From assembly GCA_023129715.1 (NCBI GenBank), contig JAGMBO010000049.1, forward strand, positions 53,600 through 117,599: a DNA stretch of 64,000 nucleotides, in the 5' to 3' direction. This DNA is from Candidatus Eiseniibacteriota bacterium (GTDB lineage: Bacteria > Eisenbacteria > RBG-16-71-46 > CAIMUX01 > WJJG01). Of this stretch, positions 66 to 11,673 are shown one piece after another. A model generated the notes under the pieces. That model did no database searches and had not been told where the DNA came from. It saw only the letters and a program-made list of their open reading frames with translations. Position 1 is the first letter of the stretch. Each line of letters opens with the position of its first letter. The translations under genes and the position numbers were made by a program.

Positions 66-854
66 ATGGAGATGACGAGCAGGAGCATCCTCAGGAGAGG
101 AAGGGAATCCAGGCGCTGGTTGCCGGTCGCATTCTTGGCGCTGCTGGTGGTTGGAGTCGGGATCCCGGCCGATGCGCAAGGCCCGGGCCATGGGCGTGGC
201 CATGGGCGTGGCACGGGCATGCAGGTCGACGAGCAGGTTTCGGTGGTGCCGGAGGCCACGGCTGGCCGCTGCGACCGGCTCTGCGAGCGGCTCGATGTAA
301 CCGACGAGCAGAGGGAAGAGATCGAGAAGATCCGCACCGAGGCGCAGGAGCAGCGCCTTGCGATGCACAAGGAGTTGAGGCGGGCGCGCCACGCTCTAAA
401 AGGGGAGCTACTCGAGGACGAACCCTCAATGAGCACCGTGCGCAATTTGGCTCGCAAGGTGGGTGAGATCGAAACCCAGCGCGACATCGCCCGCCTCGAA
501 CAGCGCATGGCGATCCGCAAGATCCTTACTCCAGAGCAGCGTGATCGTCTACTCTTCATGGGGCAGCGTGGGGGTCACCATCGCGGCGGCCCGAGCCGCG
601 GGCCGTGCGCGCCCCATGGTGGTGCTCACCTGTGGCACGGCCCACGGCCTTGCCACCCGGGGGCGCCGGGAGCTCCCTGTGCACCGGGTGCGCCGCAGGC
701 GCCGGGATACGGCCATGACCCCCATGGCATGGGTCGCGGGTTCCATGGCGAGTGGTTCATGCCCGATCAGATGGTGCCCGGCCCCGACGATGCGCCGGCC
801 GAGGAGATGCTCGACTACGGTCTCCTCTTGGAAGACGCGCTGTTGGACGAGTAG
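66..854 (+). CDS. Periplasmic LTXXQ-motif protein (CpxP/Spy/ZraP-like) with a His/Gly/Pro-rich C-terminal tail
   Basis: Signal-peptide-like N-terminus (LPVAFLALLVVGVGIPADA). LTXXQ-type motifs VTDEQREEIEKI and LTPEQRDRL. C-terminus rich in H/G/P, suggesting metal binding. Good GC3 bias. Confidence 0.6.
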   Translation: MEMTSRSILRRGRESRRWLPVAFLALLVVGVGIPADAQGPGHGRGHGRGTGMQVDEQVSVVPEATAGRCDRLCERLDVTDEQREEIEKIRTEAQEQRLAMHKELRRARHALKGELLEDEPSMSTVRNLARKVGEIETQRDIARLEQRMAIRKILTPEQRDRLLFMGQRGGHHRGGPSRGPCAPHGGAHLWHGPRPCHPGAPGAPCAPGAPQAPGYGHDPHGMGRGFHGEWFMPDQMVPGPDDAPAEEMLDYGLLLEDALLDE

Positions 855-946: not shown

Positions 947-1492
947 GTGAACGACGACGACCTGATGAGGCGCGTGGCGCAGGGCGACGAGGAGTCGTTC
1001 CGGATCCTCGTGGAACGCTGGGAACGGCCTGTCTTCGCGTTTCTGGAACGGATGACCGGTTCCACCGAAGAGGCGCTCGACCTCAGTCAGGAAGTCTTCG
1101 TCCGGGTCTTTCGAAAGGCCCGGCGCTACACGCCCAACGGGCGTTTCCGTTCCTGGATCTTCCGCATCGCGGGCAATCTCGCTCGCAGTCTGTTGCGCCG
1201 CCGGAAGATCCTGCGCTGGGTGCGCTTCGATTCACGCCGCCACGAGCGGCCGGCAACCGGAGAGGGACCGGAGGCGCAGTATGAGCAGAAGATGCTGCGC
1301 AAGGCGGTCCGCGAGGCAATCGCCCGGCTGCCTGAGCGGCAACGCCGGGCGCTCCTGATGCGGCGTTACGAGGGAATGAGCTACCAGGAGATCGCGCTCA
1401 GTCTCGGCACGACGGTGCCGGCGGTCGAGTCGCTTCTGCAGCGCGCGTTGCGTGTCCTGCGCGAGGAACTCGGCCGCGAGGGGAAGAGATGA
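947..1492 (+). CDS. ECF-type RNA polymerase sigma factor (sigma-70 regions 2 and 4)
   Basis: N-terminal region-2-like block (DLSQEVFVRVFRKARRY) and C-terminal region-4 helix-turn-helix (MSYQEIALSLGTTVPAVESLLQRA). Size 181 aa. Confidence 0.8.
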   Translation: MNDDDLMRRVAQGDEESFRILVERWERPVFAFLERMTGSTEEALDLSQEVFVRVFRKARRYTPNGRFRSWIFRIAGNLARSLLRRRKILRWVRFDSRRHERPATGEGPEAQYEQKMLRKAVREAIARLPERQRRALLMRRYEGMSYQEIALSLGTTVPAVESLLQRALRVLREELGREGKR

Positions 1493-1929
1493 TGGGACCT
1501 CACATCGATGATCGCCTCGAGGCGTTCGTCGCCGGCGAAGTAACGGCCGAAGAAGCGGGGCGGATCCGGGCCCACTGTACCGACTGCCCGCGCTGCCGCC
1601 GCGCACTGGCCGAGACGCAGGCCGCCTGGGACGCGCTCGACAATGATGCCTCCCCTGAACTTCCGCGCCCCCTCTGGCCGCTTCTGCGCGCGCGGATCGA
1701 GAAGCCGAGTTCACCCCGGGCAAGACTCGCGCTGACCGTCAGCGCATCGGCTGCCGCGGTTGCCGGGCTGGTTCTAGGGATCTATCTCGGATCTCAGTTC
1801 ATGGGCGCTCCCAGCGCGTGGCAGCAGGAGACCTGGACGCAGGTCGGCTCGTTGCTCGCTGATGGTGGGCAGGGCACGCTCGATCAGGTCTACGTCTCGG
1901 GCTTCGACGAGGGAGGTGATGAGCAGTGA
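1489..1929 (+). CDS. Zinc-finger (ZAS-type) anti-sigma factor with one transmembrane segment
   Basis: ATGA start/stop overlap with the sigma-factor gene. HCTDCPRC matches an HxxxCxxC zinc motif. One hydrophobic span (LALTVSASAAAVAGLVLGIYLG). Confidence 0.65.
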   Translation: MMGPHIDDRLEAFVAGEVTAEEAGRIRAHCTDCPRCRRALAETQAAWDALDNDASPELPRPLWPLLRARIEKPSSPRARLALTVSASAAAVAGLVLGIYLGSQFMGAPSAWQQETWTQVGSLLADGGQGTLDQVYVSGFDEGGDEQ

Positions 1930-2492
1930 GACGGGGTTGGTTCGTGCTGCTGGCACTTTCGCTGGGGCTGAACGCCGGCCTGTTCTATACGACTCTGGCG
2001 ACGCGTTCATCCGATGATCTGGCGCCGGCGCCGCCGCCTATGGTCGGCCCCCCCGTGGCGGTCCCCGGTCACCCGGGGCCGGGAATGGATCCACCCGGAG
2101 CGCCGGCCGTCGAGCAGATGATCCGGGGTCGCCACGAGCGGATGTGCCGTTTCCTCGTCCTCGGCGACGACCAGCGCAGGCAGACTCGGACGATCCTCGA
2201 TGCGGCGTTGCCCCGGATCGTCGCCCTGCGTGAGGATGTACACGAGATTCGTCGCCTGATCCATGACGCCTACCGTCAGCCTGAAATCGATGCGCCCCAC
2301 ATCCGCGGACTCGTCGAGCGGCTGACCGCGGCGCAGGCCCGGCTCGACTCCCTCGCCGCCGAGACGATGTTGCAGGAAGTCGCTCTCCTGACGCCCGAGC
2401 AGCGGGTCGCCTATTGGCGCGCGATGCCGTTTGGTCTGCCCCCACAGCCCGCCGGATGTGGCCGGCACGGTCTCCGGCACCACAAGCCCTGA
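1926..2492 (+). CDS. Second periplasmic LTXXQ/Spy-like protein
   Basis: GTG start overlaps the anti-sigma stop. N-terminal signal/TM segment. LTPEQRVAYWRAM motif. Pro-rich linker. Confidence 0.5.
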   Translation: MRRGWFVLLALSLGLNAGLFYTTLATRSSDDLAPAPPPMVGPPVAVPGHPGPGMDPPGAPAVEQMIRGRHERMCRFLVLGDDQRRQTRTILDAALPRIVALREDVHEIRRLIHDAYRQPEIDAPHIRGLVERLTAAQARLDSLAAETMLQEVALLTPEQRVAYWRAMPFGLPPQPAGCGRHGLRHHKP

Positions 2493-2820: not shown

Positions 2821-3660
2821 ATGCGACGCACGCTCCATGTTTCGTTTCTTGCGCTTAGCGTGGCATGGCTTGCTTTCTTCCCGGGCGCCGGGGAGGTGGG
2901 GTGCCAGGACTGCGCCGACTGCCCGCCGGGCGAGGGCGCTCCCGCGGACACCTTGCCGTTCACCGTCACGGCCGAGGCTCTGGATCTCACCTGCTATCCG
3001 GCCCGGATCGCTTCCGATGAAGGGCATTGGAGCTTCCTGCTTCGCGGCCGCGCGACGCTCGATCTCGTCGATGCGCACCTGCACACGTCGGTGGGCGACT
3101 TCGCGGCCGCCGGGATCCGCTATCCGACGCCGAACGGTGCCGTCGTCGACATCGAGTATCCCGAGTTGGTGGATACAATGGTCGACTTGGTGCTCGAAGG
3201 CCCGGATGCGGAACTGGCGCGCTTACCGATTCACGTTTTCGGTCCTGTCGATATTCCCGACGAAGATCGCCAGTCCGGCATCGTGCGACTGCAGCTCGAG
3301 GAGGGAACAATCCTCTATCCCCTCCATGTCGGACCCGGGAGCAGTTTGGTCGAGTATCGCACGCTCGCCGAGGTCACCGGAGATGAGGGCTTTTTGGGCG
3401 CACTGCGCGACCTGGGCATCGACCGGCTGCGCAAGGTGATGTCACGCTTCGCCGAGGGAGATACGGTGCAGTGGGATCCGAAGAACTACCGGGAGCTGCA
3501 CTACGGGGCCAAGCACCTGCGGATGTACCTGGTCTACCTCGATCCTTCGCAGTCCGAGGAGGCCTACCGCCAGGTCTTGCGCGGTTTTCCGCACGTCGAA
3601 GCAGCCTTCCTGAACGAGGTCCGCGCCGCCGCCATCCGCCGCAAGACCGGCGGCCGCTAG
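2821..3660 (+). CDS. Hypothetical secreted protein
   Basis: Signal peptide (LHVSFLALSVAWLAFFPGAG). Good codon bias. No recognisable family. Confidence 0.45.
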   Translation: MRRTLHVSFLALSVAWLAFFPGAGEVGCQDCADCPPGEGAPADTLPFTVTAEALDLTCYPARIASDEGHWSFLLRGRATLDLVDAHLHTSVGDFAAAGIRYPTPNGAVVDIEYPELVDTMVDLVLEGPDAELARLPIHVFGPVDIPDEDRQSGIVRLQLEEGTILYPLHVGPGSSLVEYRTLAEVTGDEGFLGALRDLGIDRLRKVMSRFAEGDTVQWDPKNYRELHYGAKHLRMYLVYLDPSQSEEAYRQVLRGFPHVEAAFLNEVRAAAIRRKTGGR

Positions 3661-3971
3661 ACGTGCTTGTCGATCATCTCGACGATTCTGTCGCGGTTCT
3701 GCAGGCCGATGAAGTGATCGACCTTCTCGCCGCCCTTCATGAAGACGACCGTCGGCACGCTCATGATGCCGAAACGCTTGGCCAGTCCCGGGGCCTTGGC
3801 GACATCGCAGTGGGCGATCACTGCCCGGCCCTGGTAAACGCCTTCCAGCTCTTTCAGGATCGGATCGAGCTTCTTACACGGTGGGCACCAGTCCGCCCCG
3901 AAATCCAGGACGATCAGGCCGTTGCTGTTCTCAACGTGCTGCGCGTAATTTCCGTCATCGATATCGAGCAT
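3657..3971 (-). CDS. trxA: Thioredoxin with variant WCPPC active site
   Basis: 104 aa. Active-site motif VLDFGADWCPPCKKLDPIL and conserved cis-Pro region MSVPTVVFMKGG. Convergent 4-bp overlap with the upstream gene. Confidence 0.85.
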   Translation of the reverse strand: MLDIDDGNYAQHVENSNGLIVLDFGADWCPPCKKLDPILKELEGVYQGRAVIAHCDVAKAPGLAKRFGIMSVPTVVFMKGGEKVDHFIGLQNRDRIVEMIDKHV

Positions 3972-4167
3972 CGAAACGACTCCTCCATTGTGGATGTGAC
4001 GGAGAACCTCACCCTATGGCCGCCGGGAAGTTCCCAACATCGGCCGCCGCCTGTCAAGGAGGAGCAGTCTGCCCCTTTCGCCGGTCGATCGCAAGCCTCG
4101 TGGCTCCACGCGCCTCCCTTCTGCGCCTCGCCTCGATCTGCTATCGTCGCGTCCGGCGCCCCGCGGA

Positions 4168-6642
4168 GTGTGCCGCGCGGTGCGCGGGATGGAAGGAGGG
4201 GTCGTTTTGCGGACCAAAGCTCGCTGCTTCTCACCCAGGGCTGCGGGATGGACGAGCGCGCTGCTGCCGCTGCTGATCGCATTCGTCGCGGCTGCGGTCT
4301 GCGCCACTCCGGCGGGAGCGATTCTCCAGGCAGGATTCGAGGCCACCGCACCGCCATCGACCGAGCGGGGCCCGAGCGAGATCCAGCCCTCGGTTTCCCA
4401 GCGCTCTTCGTTGATCGGTGAGCCGGCCCCCCCCTTCGCACTGCCCACGGTTACGGATGAGCAGATCGTCTATAGCGATACGCTCTTGGAGTCTGCGGCC
4501 GTGACTCTGCTGACCTTCTGGACGACCCACTGCGCTGAATGCATCCGGCGCCTGGAGATCTGCCAGGAACTCGATCGCTGGGGGCGGGAGGATGGGGTGC
4601 GCGCCTTCGGGGTCAATTTCGATGAGACCCCCAGCGCGCGCATCCAGCTCATGGTGCGCCAGGCGACTCCGCAGGTGACCCATGTCTTCGATGCCGGCGG
4701 CCAGACGGCAGCCCGCTATGGGGCAGGCGCCCACAGCTTCAGCGTCTTTCTCATCGATGCCGCCCGGATCGTTCGCGATGCCTTCTTCGAGATCCCCGCC
4801 GACTCCCTGGCCGGATTGCGGCCCCGGCTGAGCCGCTTGATCGAGGAGGCCTATGGTGGGGGCGAAGAGGGGCTGACCGGCACAGAGATGGTCACGACGA
4901 CGGTCTCGGCCGCCGCACCGGCAACGGCCCCGCCCCAGGACGCGGAGGAGGCAAAGCCCTTGGCTCTGGCCCAGGATGCGGCACCGGCAACGACTCCGGC
5001 TCCGGCCCAGGGCGCGGCGCAGGCAACGACTCCGGCTCCGGCCCAGGATGCGGAGCCGGAACCGGCGCGTTCCGGGCTGCTCGAGGAGTTCGGGCTGCTC
5101 AAGCGCCAGCGCCTCGAGGTCCATGGCGTCGGGCGCGTGCGCTGGATGCACATCAAGGGGAGCGGGGAAGACCCCACCGGGTCCTACGGCGAGCGCATCG
5201 ACCCGGGCGCCTCCCTGCGCCATCGCCTGGAACTCCAGATGATCTATGCCGTTAGCGCCAAACTTCGCGTCGGCGGCCTGCTCTGGTTGAGCAATGAGGG
5301 TGAGGCGGTGCTGCGCAGCGGCCCCGACTACCTCACCAGCGCGTGGGGCAGCGCGTTCATTCGCTACGACACCTCGGCCCGCTTGGGCTGCCTCGGGCGC
5401 CTGCGGGCCGCGTTGCGCGCCGGCTACTACGATCTGCACTTCACGCCGCTGACCCTGATGCGCTGGGACAAAGACGATTCCCCGATCAGCGGCGGCCAAC
5501 GCGTTCAGGGATGCGCCGTCTGCGGCGGTGAGGCGGGCCTGGCGGGATTCATCCGCTCGGAGAGCGTCGAGAAGCTCGGTCCCGACTACACCTTCGAGGG
5601 CGCGCGCGCCGATCTTTCACTCGGCGGGAGCCTTGATCTGACAGCGATCTACGCGCGGCCCCGCGAGTCCTGGCCGGAGCATCGCGGCGAGATCAGCCCG
5701 GAGACACGCACCGAATTGACCTACCGCCAGGAGATCTACGGTGGACGGCTGACCGGGTTGATTCCCCTCGCCTGGACCTCGCAGCCGGCGACCCTCTCCT
5801 CGACCCTGCTCTTGATCACCGACGACACCGAGGACTGGCCCTGGGGCGAGACCTACGGGATCTGGCCCGAGTACGCGCCGGGCACGGTCCGCTTGCTGGG
5901 GGGGGATGTCGTCCTGCCGCTGCCCTCGCGGATGGAACTGCGTGCCGAGCTGCTCCAGAGCCGCTGGGACGAGGAGACCCGGGAGGTGGGCGAGCCGAGC
6001 CCGGACCATGCCAATGCCTTCCGGGGCGAATGGATCCTCGATCTGCGGTCCGGCGGGGCGGAGCCGCTCGACTGGCTGCTCGGTCTGCTGGCTCCCGATA
6101 TGACCGCCAAGATCAACCTTGCCTACCAGCGCAGTGGGGCGGGGTTCTTCTCGCCATACGGGGCGCTCTCCTATGATGTTAACCTGCGTCCCTCACCCCA
6201 GGTGATCCAGCCGGGACTCGAGGGGCCGCGCGCCTGGATGCGAGTCGATTGGCGGATCTTCGGCGGGGGTGTGTTCGGCAAATGGCTCGATCCGGTCGAC
6301 CCGCACGCCACCGCCGAGACGGGCGGCGCTTCCGGGGTGCCCGGGGGGAAGTGGCGGATGACGAGCCTGTGGGCCGATGCCGCGCTCTGGCCCGGGGGCG
6401 TGTTGACCGCCGGCTGGGTGCGGGATGAGCGTGATCCGCTCGCGGTCCAGACCGAGACTCTGCGCGAGGAGCGCCGCACACTGGTGGTCGGCCTCGAGCA
6501 GGAGCTGGCGCCCCGCTGCGTGCTGCTCCTCGAAGGGCAGTTCCTCGACGGCGTGCGCGAACCGGTCGATGACGCCGCGGGCTTGATCGAGGAGGACTAC
6601 TCGACCCGCACGCTGCGCGTGATGCTCGACGTCGAGTTCTAG
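4168..6642 (+). CDS. Fusion protein: signal peptide, TlpA/ResA-like thiol:disulfide oxidoreductase domain (CxxC = HCAEC), Ala/Pro-rich repeat linker, then a ~520-aa beta-rich C-terminal domain ending in Phe (possible outer-membrane beta-barrel)
   Basis: LLTFWTTHCAECIRRLEICQELDRW is a thioredoxin-fold CxxC block. Linker repeats APATTPAPAQGAAQATTPAPAQDA. C-terminal alternating hydrophobic pattern, with terminal ...RVMLDVEF. True start probably lies downstream of 4168 at the signal peptide LLPLLIAFVAAAVCATPAGA. Confidence 0.55.
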   Translation: MCRAVRGMEGGVVLRTKARCFSPRAAGWTSALLPLLIAFVAAAVCATPAGAILQAGFEATAPPSTERGPSEIQPSVSQRSSLIGEPAPPFALPTVTDEQIVYSDTLLESAAVTLLTFWTTHCAECIRRLEICQELDRWGREDGVRAFGVNFDETPSARIQLMVRQATPQVTHVFDAGGQTAARYGAGAHSFSVFLIDAARIVRDAFFEIPADSLAGLRPRLSRLIEEAYGGGEEGLTGTEMVTTTVSAAAPATAPPQDAEEAKPLALAQDAAPATTPAPAQGAAQATTPAPAQDAEPEPARSGLLEEFGLLKRQRLEVHGVGRVRWMHIKGSGEDPTGSYGERIDPGASLRHRLELQMIYAVSAKLRVGGLLWLSNEGEAVLRSGPDYLTSAWGSAFIRYDTSARLGCLGRLRAALRAGYYDLHFTPLTLMRWDKDDSPISGGQRVQGCAVCGGEAGLAGFIRSESVEKLGPDYTFEGARADLSLGGSLDLTAIYARPRESWPEHRGEISPETRTELTYRQEIYGGRLTGLIPLAWTSQPATLSSTLLLITDDTEDWPWGETYGIWPEYAPGTVRLLGGDVVLPLPSRMELRAELLQSRWDEETREVGEPSPDHANAFRGEWILDLRSGGAEPLDWLLGLLAPDMTAKINLAYQRSGAGFFSPYGALSYDVNLRPSPQVIQPGLEGPRAWMRVDWRIFGGGVFGKWLDPVDPHATAETGGASGVPGGKWRMTSLWADAALWPGGVLTAGWVRDERDPLAVQTETLREERRTLVVGLEQELAPRCVLLLEGQFLDGVREPVDDAAGLIEEDYSTRTLRVMLDVEF

Positions 6643-8076: not shown

Positions 8077-9402
8077 GTGATGCCAGGACAACGATCGAGG
8101 AACGCCGGTGTGCCGGGCAGCCGACGGGGCTCTCTTCCGGGCGATCCGGGCTGGGGGACGCTACTCTGGCGGCCGTTGCGGCTGGTGGCGCTCGTCTATC
8201 TCGCACTGCTCGGAACCGGTGGTCTTGCCGGCGTTTGGGTGCCGGCGGCGGCCCAGGATGCCGCCGCGCCGGTGGCATCAGAGGTGTTCTCCCCCGCTCC
8301 CGAGGGACACATCCCTCCGCCGGAACTGCCCCTCGACTTCTCCGTCGTCGATACGCCTTCCGATGACGGATCATCGCTGACGCTGCGATGGGATCCCGAT
8401 CAGGTCATGCAGACGCTGGGGGTGGCCACGATCGCCGCCCTAACGTTCGCGCGGCGCGCGGTCGAAGAGACCGAATTCCTGCCGGTGGGTAGAGCCCGTG
8501 TCCGCGATGGGGAGTTCCGTGACGCGGGCCTGGAGTCGGGAGTCGCGTACATTTACCGCATCGGTTTGGAAGATGAAGACGGACTCCTGCGCAACACGGC
8601 GGCCTCGGCCCCGCTCGTCCCGCAGGCCAACTTCTTCCGCACCCACCGGACCAACGCGCTGATTCTCGTGCTCCTGATGTTCGGCCTGGTCGTCGGCTTC
8701 ATTCTCGCCGCGCGCAAGGGCATCGATCTCTTCATCCGCCGGATCGCCGGCCTGGATGCCATCGCCGAGGCAGTCGGTCGCGCTACCGAAATGGGGCGCA
8801 AGATCCTTTATATCCCCGGGATCATCAGCGTCAACGAGCCACAGACATTGGCCAGTCTGGGCATCCTTGGCTATGTCGCCAAGCTGACCGCCCGCTACGG
8901 AACCAAGCTCGAGGTGCCCAACATCGATCCGCTGACGATGGCCGCGGCGCGCGAGATCGTCAAGCAATCCTACCTCGAGGAAGGCACACCCGAGGCGTTC
9001 AACGAAGACATGATCCACTACATCACCCAAGACCAGTTCGCCTACGCGGCGGCGGTCAACGGCATCATGGTGCGCGATCGCCCGGCGGCCATCTTCCTGC
9101 TCGGCTGGTTTGCCGCCGAGTCGCTGCTGCTCTCGGAGACGGGGCAGAGCGTGGGGGCGATCCAGATCGCCGGCACCGCCCAGGTCACCCAGCTGCCCTT
9201 CTTCGTCGCCGCCTGCGACTACACCATGCTGGGTGAGGAGCTCTTTGCCGCCAGCGCCTATCTCTCCAAAGATCCCCTGATCCTCGGATCGATCAAGGGA
9301 CAGGACATGGTCAAGGCGGTGATCCTGGTTGCGATCGTCGTCGGGGTGATCATGGTCTCGGCCGGTGTGCCCGGCTTCGCAGACTTGTTCTCCGCGCTCT
9401 AG
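8077..9402 (+). CDS. Membrane protein A: signal peptide, periplasmic Ig/FN3-like region, TM, conserved ~230-aa domain, C-terminal TM
   Basis: Strong GC3 bias. Hydrophobic segments LILVLLMFGLVVGFILAA and VILVAIVVGVIMVSAG. The internal domain shares motifs with the 10169-11023 product (GTAQVTQLP vs GTTAVSAPK; LGSIKGQD vs GVIGGMKGASE). Confidence 0.6.
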   Translation: MMPGQRSRNAGVPGSRRGSLPGDPGWGTLLWRPLRLVALVYLALLGTGGLAGVWVPAAAQDAAAPVASEVFSPAPEGHIPPPELPLDFSVVDTPSDDGSSLTLRWDPDQVMQTLGVATIAALTFARRAVEETEFLPVGRARVRDGEFRDAGLESGVAYIYRIGLEDEDGLLRNTAASAPLVPQANFFRTHRTNALILVLLMFGLVVGFILAARKGIDLFIRRIAGLDAIAEAVGRATEMGRKILYIPGIISVNEPQTLASLGILGYVAKLTARYGTKLEVPNIDPLTMAAAREIVKQSYLEEGTPEAFNEDMIHYITQDQFAYAAAVNGIMVRDRPAAIFLLGWFAAESLLLSETGQSVGAIQIAGTAQVTQLPFFVAACDYTMLGEELFAASAYLSKDPLILGSIKGQDMVKAVILVAIVVGVIMVSAGVPGFADLFSAL

Positions 9403-9465
9403 AGCAGCGCAAAGGCAGCGGCGGGGTGATCGCACCGCGCCTGGTACGGATCAGAAGGAAGGGTC

Positions 9466-10104
9466 ATGAAGAGACAAATCCCGATCATGCTGGCGATCAT
9501 CGCAAGCGTCTGTCCGGTGATCGCGTTCTTCTTCCCCGACCGGTGGATCAATGAGTGGTTCAACCAGAGGCTCGACGCGTGGATGGTGATCATCGCCAGC
9601 TTCGCCCTGTTGCTGGGGATCGTCAGCATGATCCAGGTCAACATCCACAAGATCCGCCGCCGGGCGAGGGGTTGGGGCTTCAGCATTATCATTCTCGTGA
9701 CCTTCACGCTGATGGCGGCCTTTGGCCTCTTCGGTGGCCAGGGGGAGCGAGCCGACGGCAGTCTCTATCCCTTCACCTGGATGTTCCAGTTCGTCTTCTC
9801 GCCGTTGCAGGCGACGATGTTCTCGCTGCTGGCCTTCTATGTCGCCTCCGCTTCCTACCGGGCCTTCCGCGTGCGCAACGTGGAGGCGACCCTGCTGCTG
9901 ATCGGGGCGTTGATCATCATGGTGGGCCGGATTCCGCTGGGGACCCTGATTCATCCGTTGGTTCCCGACATTGCGGAGTGGGTGATGAAGTTCCCCAATA
10001 CGGCCGCACAGCGCGGGATCATCATCGGCGCCGCGCTCGGGGCGGCGTCGATGTCGGTGCGCGTGATGGTGGGGATCGAGCGGCCCTACATGGGGAAGAG
10101 CTAG
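9466..10104 (+). CDS. Polytopic membrane protein B (212 aa), paralogue of 11023-11673
   Basis: Five to six hydrophobic helices. Matches the gene-4 product: YVASASYRAFRVRNVEATLLLIGAL vs FGASFGYTVMGRISLLIGRL. Confidence 0.6.
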   Translation: MKRQIPIMLAIIASVCPVIAFFFPDRWINEWFNQRLDAWMVIIASFALLLGIVSMIQVNIHKIRRRARGWGFSIIILVTFTLMAAFGLFGGQGERADGSLYPFTWMFQFVFSPLQATMFSLLAFYVASASYRAFRVRNVEATLLLIGALIIMVGRIPLGTLIHPLVPDIAEWVMKFPNTAAQRGIIIGAALGAASMSVRVMVGIERPYMGKS

Positions 10105-10168
10105 GCATGCGCGCGATCCAAGCCGGAGACCGGTGTCGGCTGGTTAATAAGCGATGTGAGGTGGATGC

Positions 10169-11023
10169 ATGAGCTGGGCAGACAGACTGCTATTCGTGGA
10201 CCGGAGGATCATCTTCCTCTTCGTCTTCGTCGGGGCACTCGTGCCGATCATCGCACCGATCGGCCTCGGCGTGACCGTCTCCCCCCCGGTGCAACAAGTC
10301 TTCGATCGGATCGAGGAGATGCAGCCCGGGGATGCGGTGATGATCGCATTCGATTATGGTCCCTCGGACGGCCCCGAGCTCGACCCGATGGCCAACTCGA
10401 TCCTGCGTCATTGCCACTTCCGCGGGGTCAAGGTAGTCGGCCTCTCGCTCTTTCCGCTGGGGGGCGTCGACATGGCGATTGCGCGCATGCGCCAGCTCGC
10501 CGATGAGCTCGGAGCCGCCGACGGCGTCGGCTGGGTCAACCTGGGCTACAAGGATGGAGCCCAGGCCCCGATGAAGGCGATGGGCGAGAATATCGCCAGC
10601 GTCTTCCCTACCGATGCCAACGGCGTGCCCTATGAAGAGATCGCCATGCTCGAGGGCCTCCGCAACTACAACAACTTCGAGATGGCCATCTCCCTCGCCA
10701 CCAGCATCCTCGGCGAGTGGTGGATCAACCTGGTCAACGCGCAGTTCGGCATCGACGTCGCCATCGGCACTACCGCCGTCTCCGCGCCGAAATATTACGC
10801 CTACATGGAGGCTAAGCAGACTCTGGGCGTGATCGGCGGCATGAAGGGCGCCTCGGAGTACGAAGAACTCGTTGAGCGCCACTATCCGCAGGCCAAGGGG
10901 CTTTCCCGAACGGCGACGATGGGGATGGACGTGCAGTCGATTGTCCATCTGGTCATCATCTTCTTCATCCTCTTCGGAAATCTGATGTTCATCGTGACGC
11001 GCGGGAAGAAGGAGGCGAAGTAA
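10169..11023 (+). CDS. Membrane protein C: N-terminal TM, soluble domain homologous to the A domain, C-terminal TM
   Basis: N-terminal helix IIFLFVFVGALVPIIAPIGL. C-terminal helix IVHLVIIFFILFGNLMFIV. GC3 bias favours the + frame over antisense ORF 10190-10948. Confidence 0.6.
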   Translation: MSWADRLLFVDRRIIFLFVFVGALVPIIAPIGLGVTVSPPVQQVFDRIEEMQPGDAVMIAFDYGPSDGPELDPMANSILRHCHFRGVKVVGLSLFPLGGVDMAIARMRQLADELGAADGVGWVNLGYKDGAQAPMKAMGENIASVFPTDANGVPYEEIAMLEGLRNYNNFEMAISLATSILGEWWINLVNAQFGIDVAIGTTAVSAPKYYAYMEAKQTLGVIGGMKGASEYEELVERHYPQAKGLSRTATMGMDVQSIVHLVIIFFILFGNLMFIVTRGKKEAK

Positions 11024-11673
11024 TGGAGCTGCAACTGCCTGGGTTCGGTCAGTGGATCGCAGCGTTCTTCACGCTCTTTGTCTTCAGCTTCCTCTACAAG
11101 GATAACATCCTCTATCGCTTTGCCGAGAGTGTCTTTGCCGGCGTATCATTCGGGTACTATATCGGACTGGCGTATATCAATACGCTGGAACCTAACCTGT
11201 TCAGCCCCCTCTTCGGGGATTTCTCGTCAAACTGGTCCTTGTTGATTCCCTTCGCATTTGGGGTGCTCCTCTACCTCCGGTACGTTCCGAAACTCGCCTG
11301 GATCTCGCAGTGGTCGCTGGCGGTCTATATCGGGTACTACATCGGCGTCAACTTGCTCCAGCGACTGCACGGAGAAATCCTGCCGCAGACGAAGGGAACG
11401 ATGCTGCCGCTGAACGTCGAGTTCGGCCAGCTGATCGGCAACTTGGTGGTGATCGTCGGTGTGATCACAGTGTTGATCTACTTCTTCTTCTCGAGTCCGC
11501 ATCGGGGACCGCTGAAGCCCGCCGCGCGCACGGGGATCTATTTCCTGATGATCTCCTTCGGCGCGAGCTTTGGCTATACGGTGATGGGCCGTATCTCCCT
11601 GCTGATCGGCCGGTTGACCTTCCTCGTCGACGAGTGGGCGCGGCCGCTGGTCGCGACGGTCTTCGGCGGCTAG
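11023..11673 (+). CDS. Polytopic membrane protein B' (216 aa), paralogue of 9466-10104
   Basis: Start overlaps the stop of the previous gene (translational coupling). Multi-TM. Similar to B as noted above. Confidence 0.6.
   Translation: MELQLPGFGQWIAAFFTLFVFSFLYKDNILYRFAESVFAGVSFGYYIGLAYINTLEPNLFSPLFGDFSSNWSLLIPFAFGVLLYLRYVPKLAWISQWSLAVYIGYYIGVNLLQRLHGEILPQTKGTMLPLNVEFGQLIGNLVVIVGVITVLIYFFFSSPHRGPLKPAARTGIYFLMISFGASFGYTVMGRISLLIGRLTFLVDEWARPLVATVFGG

Follow-up and report, generated by a model that had tools for sequence, protein, structure and literature searches.

A periplasmic redoxin joined to a predicted outer-membrane barrel with a conserved cysteine-pair loop in Candidatus Eiseniibacteriota

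Outer-membrane barrels that carry an added periplasmic module are known from copper resistance. PcoB, which acts in copper efflux, joins a barrel in the outer membrane to a metal-handling periplasmic region at its N-terminus (PMC12509749). The subject here is a gene from a 64,000-nucleotide stretch of a Candidatus Eiseniibacteriota genome (contig JAGMBO010000049.1, positions 53,600 to 117,599; hereafter the window, in whose own numbering coordinates are given) that encodes, in one polypeptide, a redoxin followed by what is predicted to be a porin-like outer-membrane barrel. PcoB and CopB resemble this fusion in joining a barrel to an N-terminal periplasmic extension and in keeping company, as genes, with copper-resistance determinants of the periplasm and the inner membrane (PMC12509749). 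PcoB is, most plausibly, the closest analogue for the way in which the fusion protein might work. The likeness is not one of detectable homology: no Pfam or NCBIfam match connects the two, and a profile of the barrel finds 0 matches at E<=10 among PDB sequences. Further, the extension of the fusion is a folded CxxC redoxin, not a disordered His/Met region, and the ligands proposed for it are the thiolates of loop cysteines.

The two halves of the protein can also be compared separately. TlpA, ResA and CcmG (DsbE) are, like the redoxin, exported proteins of thioredoxin fold with a W-x3-C-x2-C motif, and they supply its best matches among solved structures. In relatives from WOR-3, moreover, the gene for the thioredoxin that partners the barrel accompanies one for CcdA, from which proteins of this class classically receive their electrons. 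The redoxin of the fusion differs from TlpA, ResA and CcmG in falling below equivalog cutoffs, in having Phe or Leu in place of the cis-proline, and in being tied to an outer-membrane barrel rather than to the inner membrane; no cytochrome c maturation genes lie near the fusion.

With the 18-strand porins (MOMP, AlgE, OprD/Occ, chitoporin), the barrel shares loops that are long on the outside, turns that are short on the periplasmic side, and an aromatic last residue. It differs from them in having about 20 strands, no detectable sequence similarity, a conserved Cys pair in a loop, and an enzyme domain at its N-terminus. Porins of the OmpM/SlpA type also set an N-terminal periplasmic module before a C-terminal porin barrel, and OmpM1 is among the top fold matches. 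There, however, the module (SLH plus coiled coil) is a peptidoglycan tether, whereas the module of the fusion is a redox enzyme and no SLH domain is present. Barrels of the MtrB/PioB group have about 26-28 strands and decahaem cytochrome partners. The family described here has about 20 strands and no recurrent cytochrome genes, and just 2 of 62 members match MtrB/PioB, at E ~0.01.

A last comparison concerns operons. That ars operons may contain CcdA and thioredoxin genes is a known, unexplained association (Castillo and Saier, 2010; PMC2963123). The WOR-3-type loci of the present family likewise hold ArsR, CcdA, thioredoxin, ArsP and ACR3 in a strand-consistent cluster; unlike the operons described, which are without an outer-membrane component, they add a barrel with a Cys-pair loop. 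We know of no dedicated outer-membrane component of the ars systems, and literature searches found none. To our knowledge, too, little is settled, beyond the RND/Cus and Pco systems, about how arsenite and Cu(I) pass from the periplasm through the outer membrane. Literature searches likewise found no description of a redoxin-barrel fusion, an architecture that the first-pass annotation of the DNA, made from its letters alone, had called unusual, or of this barrel family.

The locus thus stands for an exported two-domain protein, a periplasmic redoxin and a barrel, in which the barrel carries a Cys pair universal in its family and whose relatives occur in metal(loid)-resistance neighbourhoods. 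The interpretation argued for here, tentatively and at somewhat less than even strength, is that the barrel forms a channel for soft metal(loid)s through the outer membrane, lined with thiols that a dedicated redoxin keeps reduced.

The open reading frame (ORF) runs from 4168 to 6642 on the forward strand and encodes 824 amino acids, exactly as first annotated, with HCAEC at residues 121-125 and ...LDVEF at its end. Residue numbers below refer to this ORF unless another form is named, and the parts of the gene are collected in Table 1. The GC content at third codon positions (GC3) is 0.84 over the whole ORF, a strongly coding codon composition. To judge from the AAGGAGG that precedes it, a TTG at 4207 (codon 14) is the likely true start. 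It gives a protein of 811 amino acids, and an identical 811-amino-acid protein (P0001) is in NCBI under the name “redoxin domain-containing protein” (Candidatus Eisenbacteria sp.). Its N-terminus looks like a Sec signal peptide with a putative cleavage site, and the same region is a lone helix in a structure model (residues 14-33 of the 811-amino-acid form). Consensus scans for promoters and terminators around the gene gave no match, such scans being uninformative for the Eisenbacteria phylum.

The case for a barrel begins with that modelling. AlphaFold2 (AF2), given a 62-sequence alignment of the C-terminal domain, returned 20 long antiparallel strands with a predicted local distance difference test (pLDDT) of 86.3 and a predicted template-modelling score (pTM) of 0.86. 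A full-length model gave two confident domains and repeated the 20-strand result. The strand count and the closure of the barrel are read from DSSP strings and fold matches. A Foldseek comparison with the PDB found 277 matches at E<=1e-3, the top 50 of which are all outer-membrane barrels; Campylobacter MOMP, AlgE, OmpM1, chitoporin and OprD/Occ head them (probability 1.0; E from 7.5e-11 to ~1e-7). The template-modelling (TM) scores of the model against PDB barrels are only 0.43-0.60.

The pattern of connections between strands says more. The number of strands is even, the odd connections are 10-50 residues long, and the even ones are 2-8 residues long (one of 17). This alternation of long loops with short turns is the classic outer-membrane topology. 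On it both termini are periplasmic, and so is the redoxin, which precedes the barrel at the N-terminal end. The last strand ends in an aromatic residue here and in most of the family: of 74 barrel ORFs, 50 close with Phe, 12 with Trp and 2 with Tyr, 64 in all, several of the remaining 10 are contig-edge ends or fragments, and the terminal Phe is nearly invariant in two alignments (A1 and A2). Together, these data support a porin-like outer-membrane barrel as the predicted fold. The first-pass annotation had proposed a possible outer-membrane barrel, reading the final aromatic as a beta-signal and naming beforehand a soluble fold in an AlphaFold model as the result that would count against it; the model is a confident barrel.

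Family databases are silent on this domain. The barrel of the window matches no Pfam family at E<=0.1, and no NCBIfam model matches it. A hidden Markov model (HMM) of the barrel built in this analysis scores the window protein at E 8e-179. The large C-terminal domain, first put at about 520 residues, is indeed a separate conserved domain of about 524, with 64 homologues, for which a search had been suggested; in a set of 1.84 billion proteins, the representatives that match the barrel at E<=1e-3 number 149. The family is small and sharply bounded. Matches of its members to named porin families are few and below threshold, and Porin_4, SlpA_C and SLH rise above threshold only in the most distant relatives in the tail of the search. 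It occurs in Eisenbacteria, Krumholzibacteriota, Latescibacterota, Poribacteria, WOR-3, Stahlbacteria, Calditrichaceae, Chitinivibrionia and UBP1, and the fusion recurs across candidate phyla of the Fibrobacteres-Chlorobi-Bacteroidetes (FCB) group.

Within the barrel, conservation is concentrated in one place. The third external loop, which lies between strands 5 and 6, is the best-conserved stretch of the domain, judged by its invariant and near-invariant alignment columns. Across the family it has the signature TPLTLMRWDxDDxP…GG…C(x0-2)C…ESLEEL…FEG; for the stretch at 5437-5586 it is written TPLTLMRWDxDDxP...GCxVCGG...ESxE...FEG. In topology the loop is the equivalent of L3 of porins, and by that analogy it probably folds into the lumen. 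All 73 of the complete barrels, whatever their lineage, have its pair of cysteines, with the spacing CxC in 38, CxxC in 32 and CC in 3; the barrel as a whole has 20 invariant residues. Because the spacing varies, and includes adjacent cysteines, a vicinal dithiol that binds a ligand is favoured over a fixed structural disulfide or a canonical redox CxxC. ArsP is said to have a CxC pair of its own. In ArsD, neighbouring cysteine pairs are known to serve as As(III) sites (PMC12607644).

The same loop could, of course, be read as a switch. In such a redox-gated porin, a disulfide in the loop would open or close a general or nutrient channel, the redoxin would reset it, and permeability would track redox or metal stress in the periplasm. 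The idea suits a fold that resembles porins and whose L3-like loop is long and conserved, and it suits the obligate pairing with a thiol oxidoreductase; the neighbours include stress regulators (ECF sigma factors, ArsR), and to curb influx would make sense beside metal-resistance genes. Yet the spacing of the pair goes down to an adjacent CC, where a disulfide is strained and makes a poor switch, and the idea leaves unexplained both the co-transcribed DUF1573 lipoprotein with its Cys pairs and the exporter genes in the same operons. It is judged unlikely, while deserving more credit than the other alternatives discussed below.

The N-terminal half is a redoxin by several measures. Residues 83-206 score above threshold with two Pfam models, at 36.1 bits with AhpC-TSA (cutoff 26) and at 28.2 bits with Redoxin (cutoff 26.6), and a Pfam match of this redoxin type (the PF08534/PF00578 superfamily) is found in 46 of 62 family members. 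A redoxin HMM built in this analysis scores the window protein at E 3e-60. Against solved structures the best alignments are to DsbE, CcmG and ResA, with CAEC falling on their CPxC. In the AF2 model, residues ~65-220 of the 811-amino-acid form have pLDDT >90 and a beta-alpha-beta pattern, and CAEC starts a helix (110-129). In the same numbering W105, C109 and C112, together with one Asp, are invariant across 47 fused homologues.

The top Pfam name, AhpC-TSA, would make the domain a peroxiredoxin. But its active site is W-x3-C-x2-C, and it does not have Arg at the position where peroxiredoxins conserve one; this identity was rejected. “TlpA-like,” the name first given to the domain, holds at the level of the superfamily, as the Pfam and PDB matches show, and fails at the level of equivalogs. 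Scores lie far below cutoff for TIGR00385 (DsbE; 33 vs 123 bits), NF011941 (29 vs 359) and the ResA model NF002854 (29 vs 170), and no TlpA match is listed for the window protein. Where 3kh7 has “GAPET,” the window protein has “HSFSV,” which puts Phe at the cis-Pro position; F or L stands there in nearly all 47 homologues.

Poribacteria-type loci show a variation on this domain. Their redoxin partner, encoded by a separate gene (L023, 6851-7831; L024, 539-1519), is a tandem of two redoxin domains, 326 amino acids in all, the second of which is without CxxC (…FWNSQLKKC…). From these residues the second domain appears degenerate and is possibly a scaffold.

Between redoxin and barrel lies the Ala/Pro-rich linker with a tandem repeat that the first-pass annotation had described. 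AF2 models it as disordered (pLDDT <50 at residues 227-289 of the full-length model). Across 45 fused ORFs in which it was measured the linker has a median of 15 residues, and the 72 residues of the window protein are the longest. As the median is short, the redoxin is normally held at the periplasmic mouth of the barrel. A long linker that would let the redoxin shuttle to the inner membrane was considered as a general feature and rejected, the 72-residue case being an outlier.

Is the joining of the two domains real? Arrangements were scored with the two domain HMMs on six-frame ORFs of 67 species-level loci, together with loci collected earlier. The barrel is fused to the redoxin in 46 independent loci from several phyla. 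A further ~20 loci have a separate redoxin gene directly upstream of the barrel, often overlapping it by 4-13 bp. This adjacency of separate genes, for which a check had been proposed at the outset, supports functional coupling of barrel and redoxin. It also gives some colour to the suspicion that two genes had been joined by a frameshift of sequencing, as raised with the first-pass annotation, or of assembly, or that the ORF is spurious. Against this stand the recurrence of the fused frame in those 46 loci, in different assemblies and phyla, the identical NCBI protein, the GC3 of the entire ORF, and the full-length AF2 model with its two confident domains. An artefact therefore has next to no probability.

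In about six complete loci, from WOR-3 and Stahlbacteria, a redoxin of this type is absent beside the barrel (in L027 and L072 the contig ends within the locus). Here a third layout appears. In six WOR-3/Stahlbacteria-type loci, the barrel sits in a single same-strand cluster with CcdA and an anchored CKxC thioredoxin, and in four of these (L055, L056, L062 and L072, the last at a contig edge) it lies between the two. The genes of L056 follow one another as ArsR, CcdA, barrel, CarboxypepD_reg protein, anchored CKxC thioredoxin, ArsP-family permease, ACR3. CcdA of the WOR-3-type loci keeps both of its Pro-flanked catalytic cysteines. Thus, in three independent gene layouts, the barrel is coupled obligately in genomes to a periplasmic thiol oxidoreductase.

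These layouts bear on what the barrel is for. One might suppose that it does nothing but position the redoxin, which would reduce or isomerise outer-membrane proteins, or lipoproteins, that had been misoxidised, for instance in copper stress, as DsbC and Scs do. The redoxin belongs to the right superfamily and has an invariant CxxC, its neighbours include copper-related genes, and copper-linked reductases of the Scs/TlpA type are known (PMC10907172). However, the split redoxins bear their own lipoboxes or signal peptides, and the thioredoxin of WOR-3 its own hydrophobic anchor, and still the barrel gene stays adjacent. Because its partners have their own anchors, the barrel is taken to be a functional partner rather than a mere tether. 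Nor would an anchor need a barrel of ~520 residues with 20 invariant ones, and what the family conserves most strongly is the barrel loop with its Cys pair, not the redoxin. Thiol repair of this kind is quite improbable as the function of the fusion.

The genes that accompany the barrel in relatives point towards metals. P1B ATPases of the CopA type are encoded in 7 distinct split-type loci; they have CopZ-like N-termini and score 531-544 bits against TIGR01511 (cutoff 397), the copper subfamily, which fits them best. In WOR-3-type loci, ArsP is present in 5 and ACR3 in 2 (TIGR00832, 360 bits, cutoff 283). ArsR/SmtB regulators accompany the barrel in 23 loci, and a trio of extracytoplasmic function (ECF) sigma factor, zf-HC2 anti-sigma factor and Metal_resist protein is found in 7 split-type loci. 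In ~13 split-type loci, a DUF1573 lipoprotein with a conserved CxC (S/T-C-D/E-C-L) and CxxC (R-C-F-G-C) is encoded immediately downstream of the barrel and translationally coupled to it. Since relatives of the fusion lie beside genes for the export of copper and arsenic, the barrel may be a route for thiol-loving toxic metals across the outer membrane.

The channel reading would then work as follows. A flexible linker would tie the CxxC redoxin of a Sec-exported polypeptide to the periplasmic N-terminus of a barrel of ~20 strands. CopA, ACR3 or ArsP would expel Cu(I)/Ag(I) or As(III)-type species into the periplasm, and the barrel would be their channel, with the loop Cys pair as both dithiol ligand and selectivity site. 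The tethered redoxin would keep that pair reduced, and in some lineages the Cys pairs of the DUF1573 lipoprotein as well, drawing electrons ultimately from cytoplasmic thioredoxin via a membrane protein of the CcdA/DsbD type. Substrate, direction of transport, the place of the loop in the lumen, and the action of the redoxin on the loop cysteines are what we infer in this scheme.

The direction could be the reverse. The barrel might take up copper, or another thiophilic nutrient, for the assembly of cuproenzymes, with the redoxin acting as TlpA does towards acceptors of the Sco/CoxB type. A TlpA-like domain is present, the nearby P1B ATPases could be assembly pumps of the CcoI/FixI type (HMM scores do not distinguish these), and OprC offers a precedent for copper uptake sites that contain Cys (PMC8610252). 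But no Sco, PCuAC or oxidase genes are among the recurrent neighbours, and the other transporters associated with the family (ACR3, ArsP, MatE) are exporters. Uptake is accordingly given little weight, slightly less than thiol repair.

Less weight again is given to a relay of thiols or electrons across the outer membrane, in which the redoxin would pass reducing equivalents, in the manner of DsbD, through the loop cysteines to substrates at the cell surface (metalloid oxyanions, disulfides or minerals). A CxxC domain fused 1:1 to another Cys pair does resemble the modular cascades of DsbD, CcdA is directly upstream of the barrel in WOR-3, and two family members have weak matches to MtrB_PioB. 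Those matches are below threshold, however, the variable CC/CxC spacing would be unusual for disulfides of a redox relay, and no cytochromes or extracellular reductases recur among the neighbours. Such a relay is very improbable.

Several observations weigh against the thiol-lined channel, too. No CopA, ACR3, ArsP or CcdA is encoded within the 64-kb window, where the only local link to metals is an ECF/Metal_resist module 1.7 kb upstream of the fusion. The thioredoxin gene next to the fusion could reflect mere synteny with housekeeping genes (M29 peptidase, DUF6754). Neighbours differ between lineages, and part of their recurrence may be phylogenetic synteny, as with GltX and MatE in Krumholzibacteriota; regulators of the ArsR family also sense persulfide or sulfite, and BigR-like matches occur. 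In the model, the Cys loop is the one part of low confidence (pLDDT 33-38), so that the loop may lie in the lumen, outside, or in the periplasm, and the 15-kDa redoxin may or may not reach it. The closed barrel is a prediction from strand strings and fold matches, and any docking of redoxin and barrel is putative. The redoxin is without the usual cis-proline, and its chemistry may be atypical. Finally, all hosts of the family are uncultured organisms represented by metagenome-assembled genomes.

Some further genes recur near the barrel in relatives. A CarboxypepD_reg (transthyretin-like) protein is encoded directly after it in L056 (9362-10378, forward strand) and in 4 other WOR-3-type loci; it holds the slot that DUF1573 has in split-type operons, and may be an analogous accessory partner of beta-sandwich fold. 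The CcdA homologue of L056 (7241-7870, forward strand) has a weak, sub-threshold match to the ArsG arsenical permease (36 bits, cutoff 200). In an ars context, then, genes of the CcdA kind might encode transporters rather than electron carriers; in L056, both catalytic Cys motifs are intact. In Krumholzibacteriota-type loci, a secreted protein of ~115 amino acids (cluster c2) is convergent just downstream of the fusion (L051, 9599-9943, and L039, 9553-9903, both on the reverse strand, and ~20 others). It follows the pattern AE..Y…N…I…G…GL…GEW.EY…G.Y…, usually has a single Cys near its C-terminus, and has no Pfam match.

In the window itself, the fusion gene is divergent from a gene for a 104-amino-acid thioredoxin of cytoplasmic type. 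The two stay together in ~11 Eisenbacteria-type loci, among them L004, down to 38% identity in the barrel. Because the whole region is syntenic, M29 peptidase and DUF6754 included, this neighbour is weaker evidence. The 235-bp divergent intergenic region between the two genes contains an 11-bp palindrome (GGGAAGTTCCC, 4025-4035), which could be an operator or chance.

Before the thioredoxin gene lies one for an exported protein of 279 amino acids (2821-3660, forward strand) with a Cys-rich motif near its N-terminus, GCQDCADCPPG, and with no Pfam or NCBIfam match. Its homologues (cluster c16) are upstream of the thioredoxin/fusion pair in ~11 Eisenbacteria-type loci. An identification with the genes of 277 and 278 amino acids beside split-type operons was rejected: those two are homologous to each other and not to it.

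Two periplasmic proteins of the LTXXQ/Metal_resist kind (CpxP/ZraP/CnrX-like), at 66-854 and 1926-2492, flank an ECF sigma/anti-sigma pair, and the set at 947-2492 is a possible regulator module. The protein at 66-854 is rich in His and Gly at both ends (GPGHGRGHGRG...; ...HGGAHLWHGPRPCHPG...GYGHDPHGMGRGFHGEW), a composition that suggests metal binding. On the other side of the fusion, the forward strand encodes a DUF6754 protein and then unannotated membrane proteins at 9466-10104, 10169-11023 and 11023-11673. The DUF6754 gene and these three keep the same order in the distant relative L004, and the block (8077-11673) may specify an uncharacterised membrane complex.

Table 1. Features of the redoxin-barrel gene and of its neighbours, in coordinates of the window
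Feature	Coordinates	Strand	Details
Probable true coding sequence of the redoxin-barrel fusion	4207..6642	+	811 amino acids plus stop; longest ORF from 4168
Putative signal peptide	4207..4320	+	basic n-region, hydrophobic ALLPLLIAFVAAAV, then ...PAGA before ILQ
Thioredoxin-fold redoxin domain	4402..4851	+	ORF residues 79-228; Pfam, PDB matches, redoxin HMM, AF2
Active site CAEC (C122, C125)	4531..4542	+	part of invariant W-x3-C-x2-C motif
Predicted disordered Ala/Pro/Thr-rich linker	4852..5067	+	72 amino acids, ORF residues ~229-300
36-bp tandem repeat, 2.6 copies, within linker	4962..5053	+	Tandem Repeats Finder, score 149
Predicted porin-like outer-membrane beta-barrel domain, ~20 strands	5068..6639	+	ORF residues 301-824, ~524 amino acids
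Long third external loop (L3-like), predicted	5437..5586	+	ORF residues 424-473, 50 amino acids, between strands 5 and 6
Vicinal cysteine pair C449-A-V-C452	5512..5523	+	within L3-like loop
C-terminal strand, beta-signal-like, ...RVMLDVEF	6610..6639	+	ends in Phe
LTXXQ/Metal_resist-like exported protein	66..854	+	Pfam LTXXQ 7e-11
ECF sigma factor	947-1492	+	Pfam; homologous to sigma factor of split-type trio, 8e-24
zf-HC2 anti-sigma factor	1489-1929	+	Pfam; homologous to anti-sigma factor of split-type trio, 1e-8
Periplasmic Metal_resist/LTXXQ protein	1926-2492	+	above Pfam threshold
Divergent 104-amino-acid thioredoxin, WCPPC, no signal peptide	3657..3971	-	Pfam Thioredoxin 9e-24

What would the channel mean for these organisms? 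A larger claim, advanced with noticeably less confidence than the channel itself and on balance doubtful, is that the family supplies, for several uncultured phyla of the FCB group, the outer-membrane step that is missing from the detoxification of Cu(I) and As(III). A loop in the lumen would pass soft metal(loid)s by exchange of thiolate ligands, and a reductase, whether fused, adjacent, or supplied as CcdA plus thioredoxin, would reduce the pair again. If this is true, it would explain why CcdA and thioredoxin genes are found in ars operons, and would give them a concrete client (PMC2963123). It would also be a new design principle for outer-membrane transport, in which a barrel carries its own reductase because reduced cysteines are needed in an oxidising envelope.

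The proteins of the family are now labelled in databases only “redoxin,” “TlpA family” or “peroxiredoxin.” What is new is a family of barrels that have a Cys pair in a loop and a reductase of their own, and whose function we infer from their anatomy and gene context. Whatever that function may be, a previously unannotated barrel family is defined, with no Pfam model, ~150 representatives, a clear signature, and a Rosetta-stone link to redoxins.

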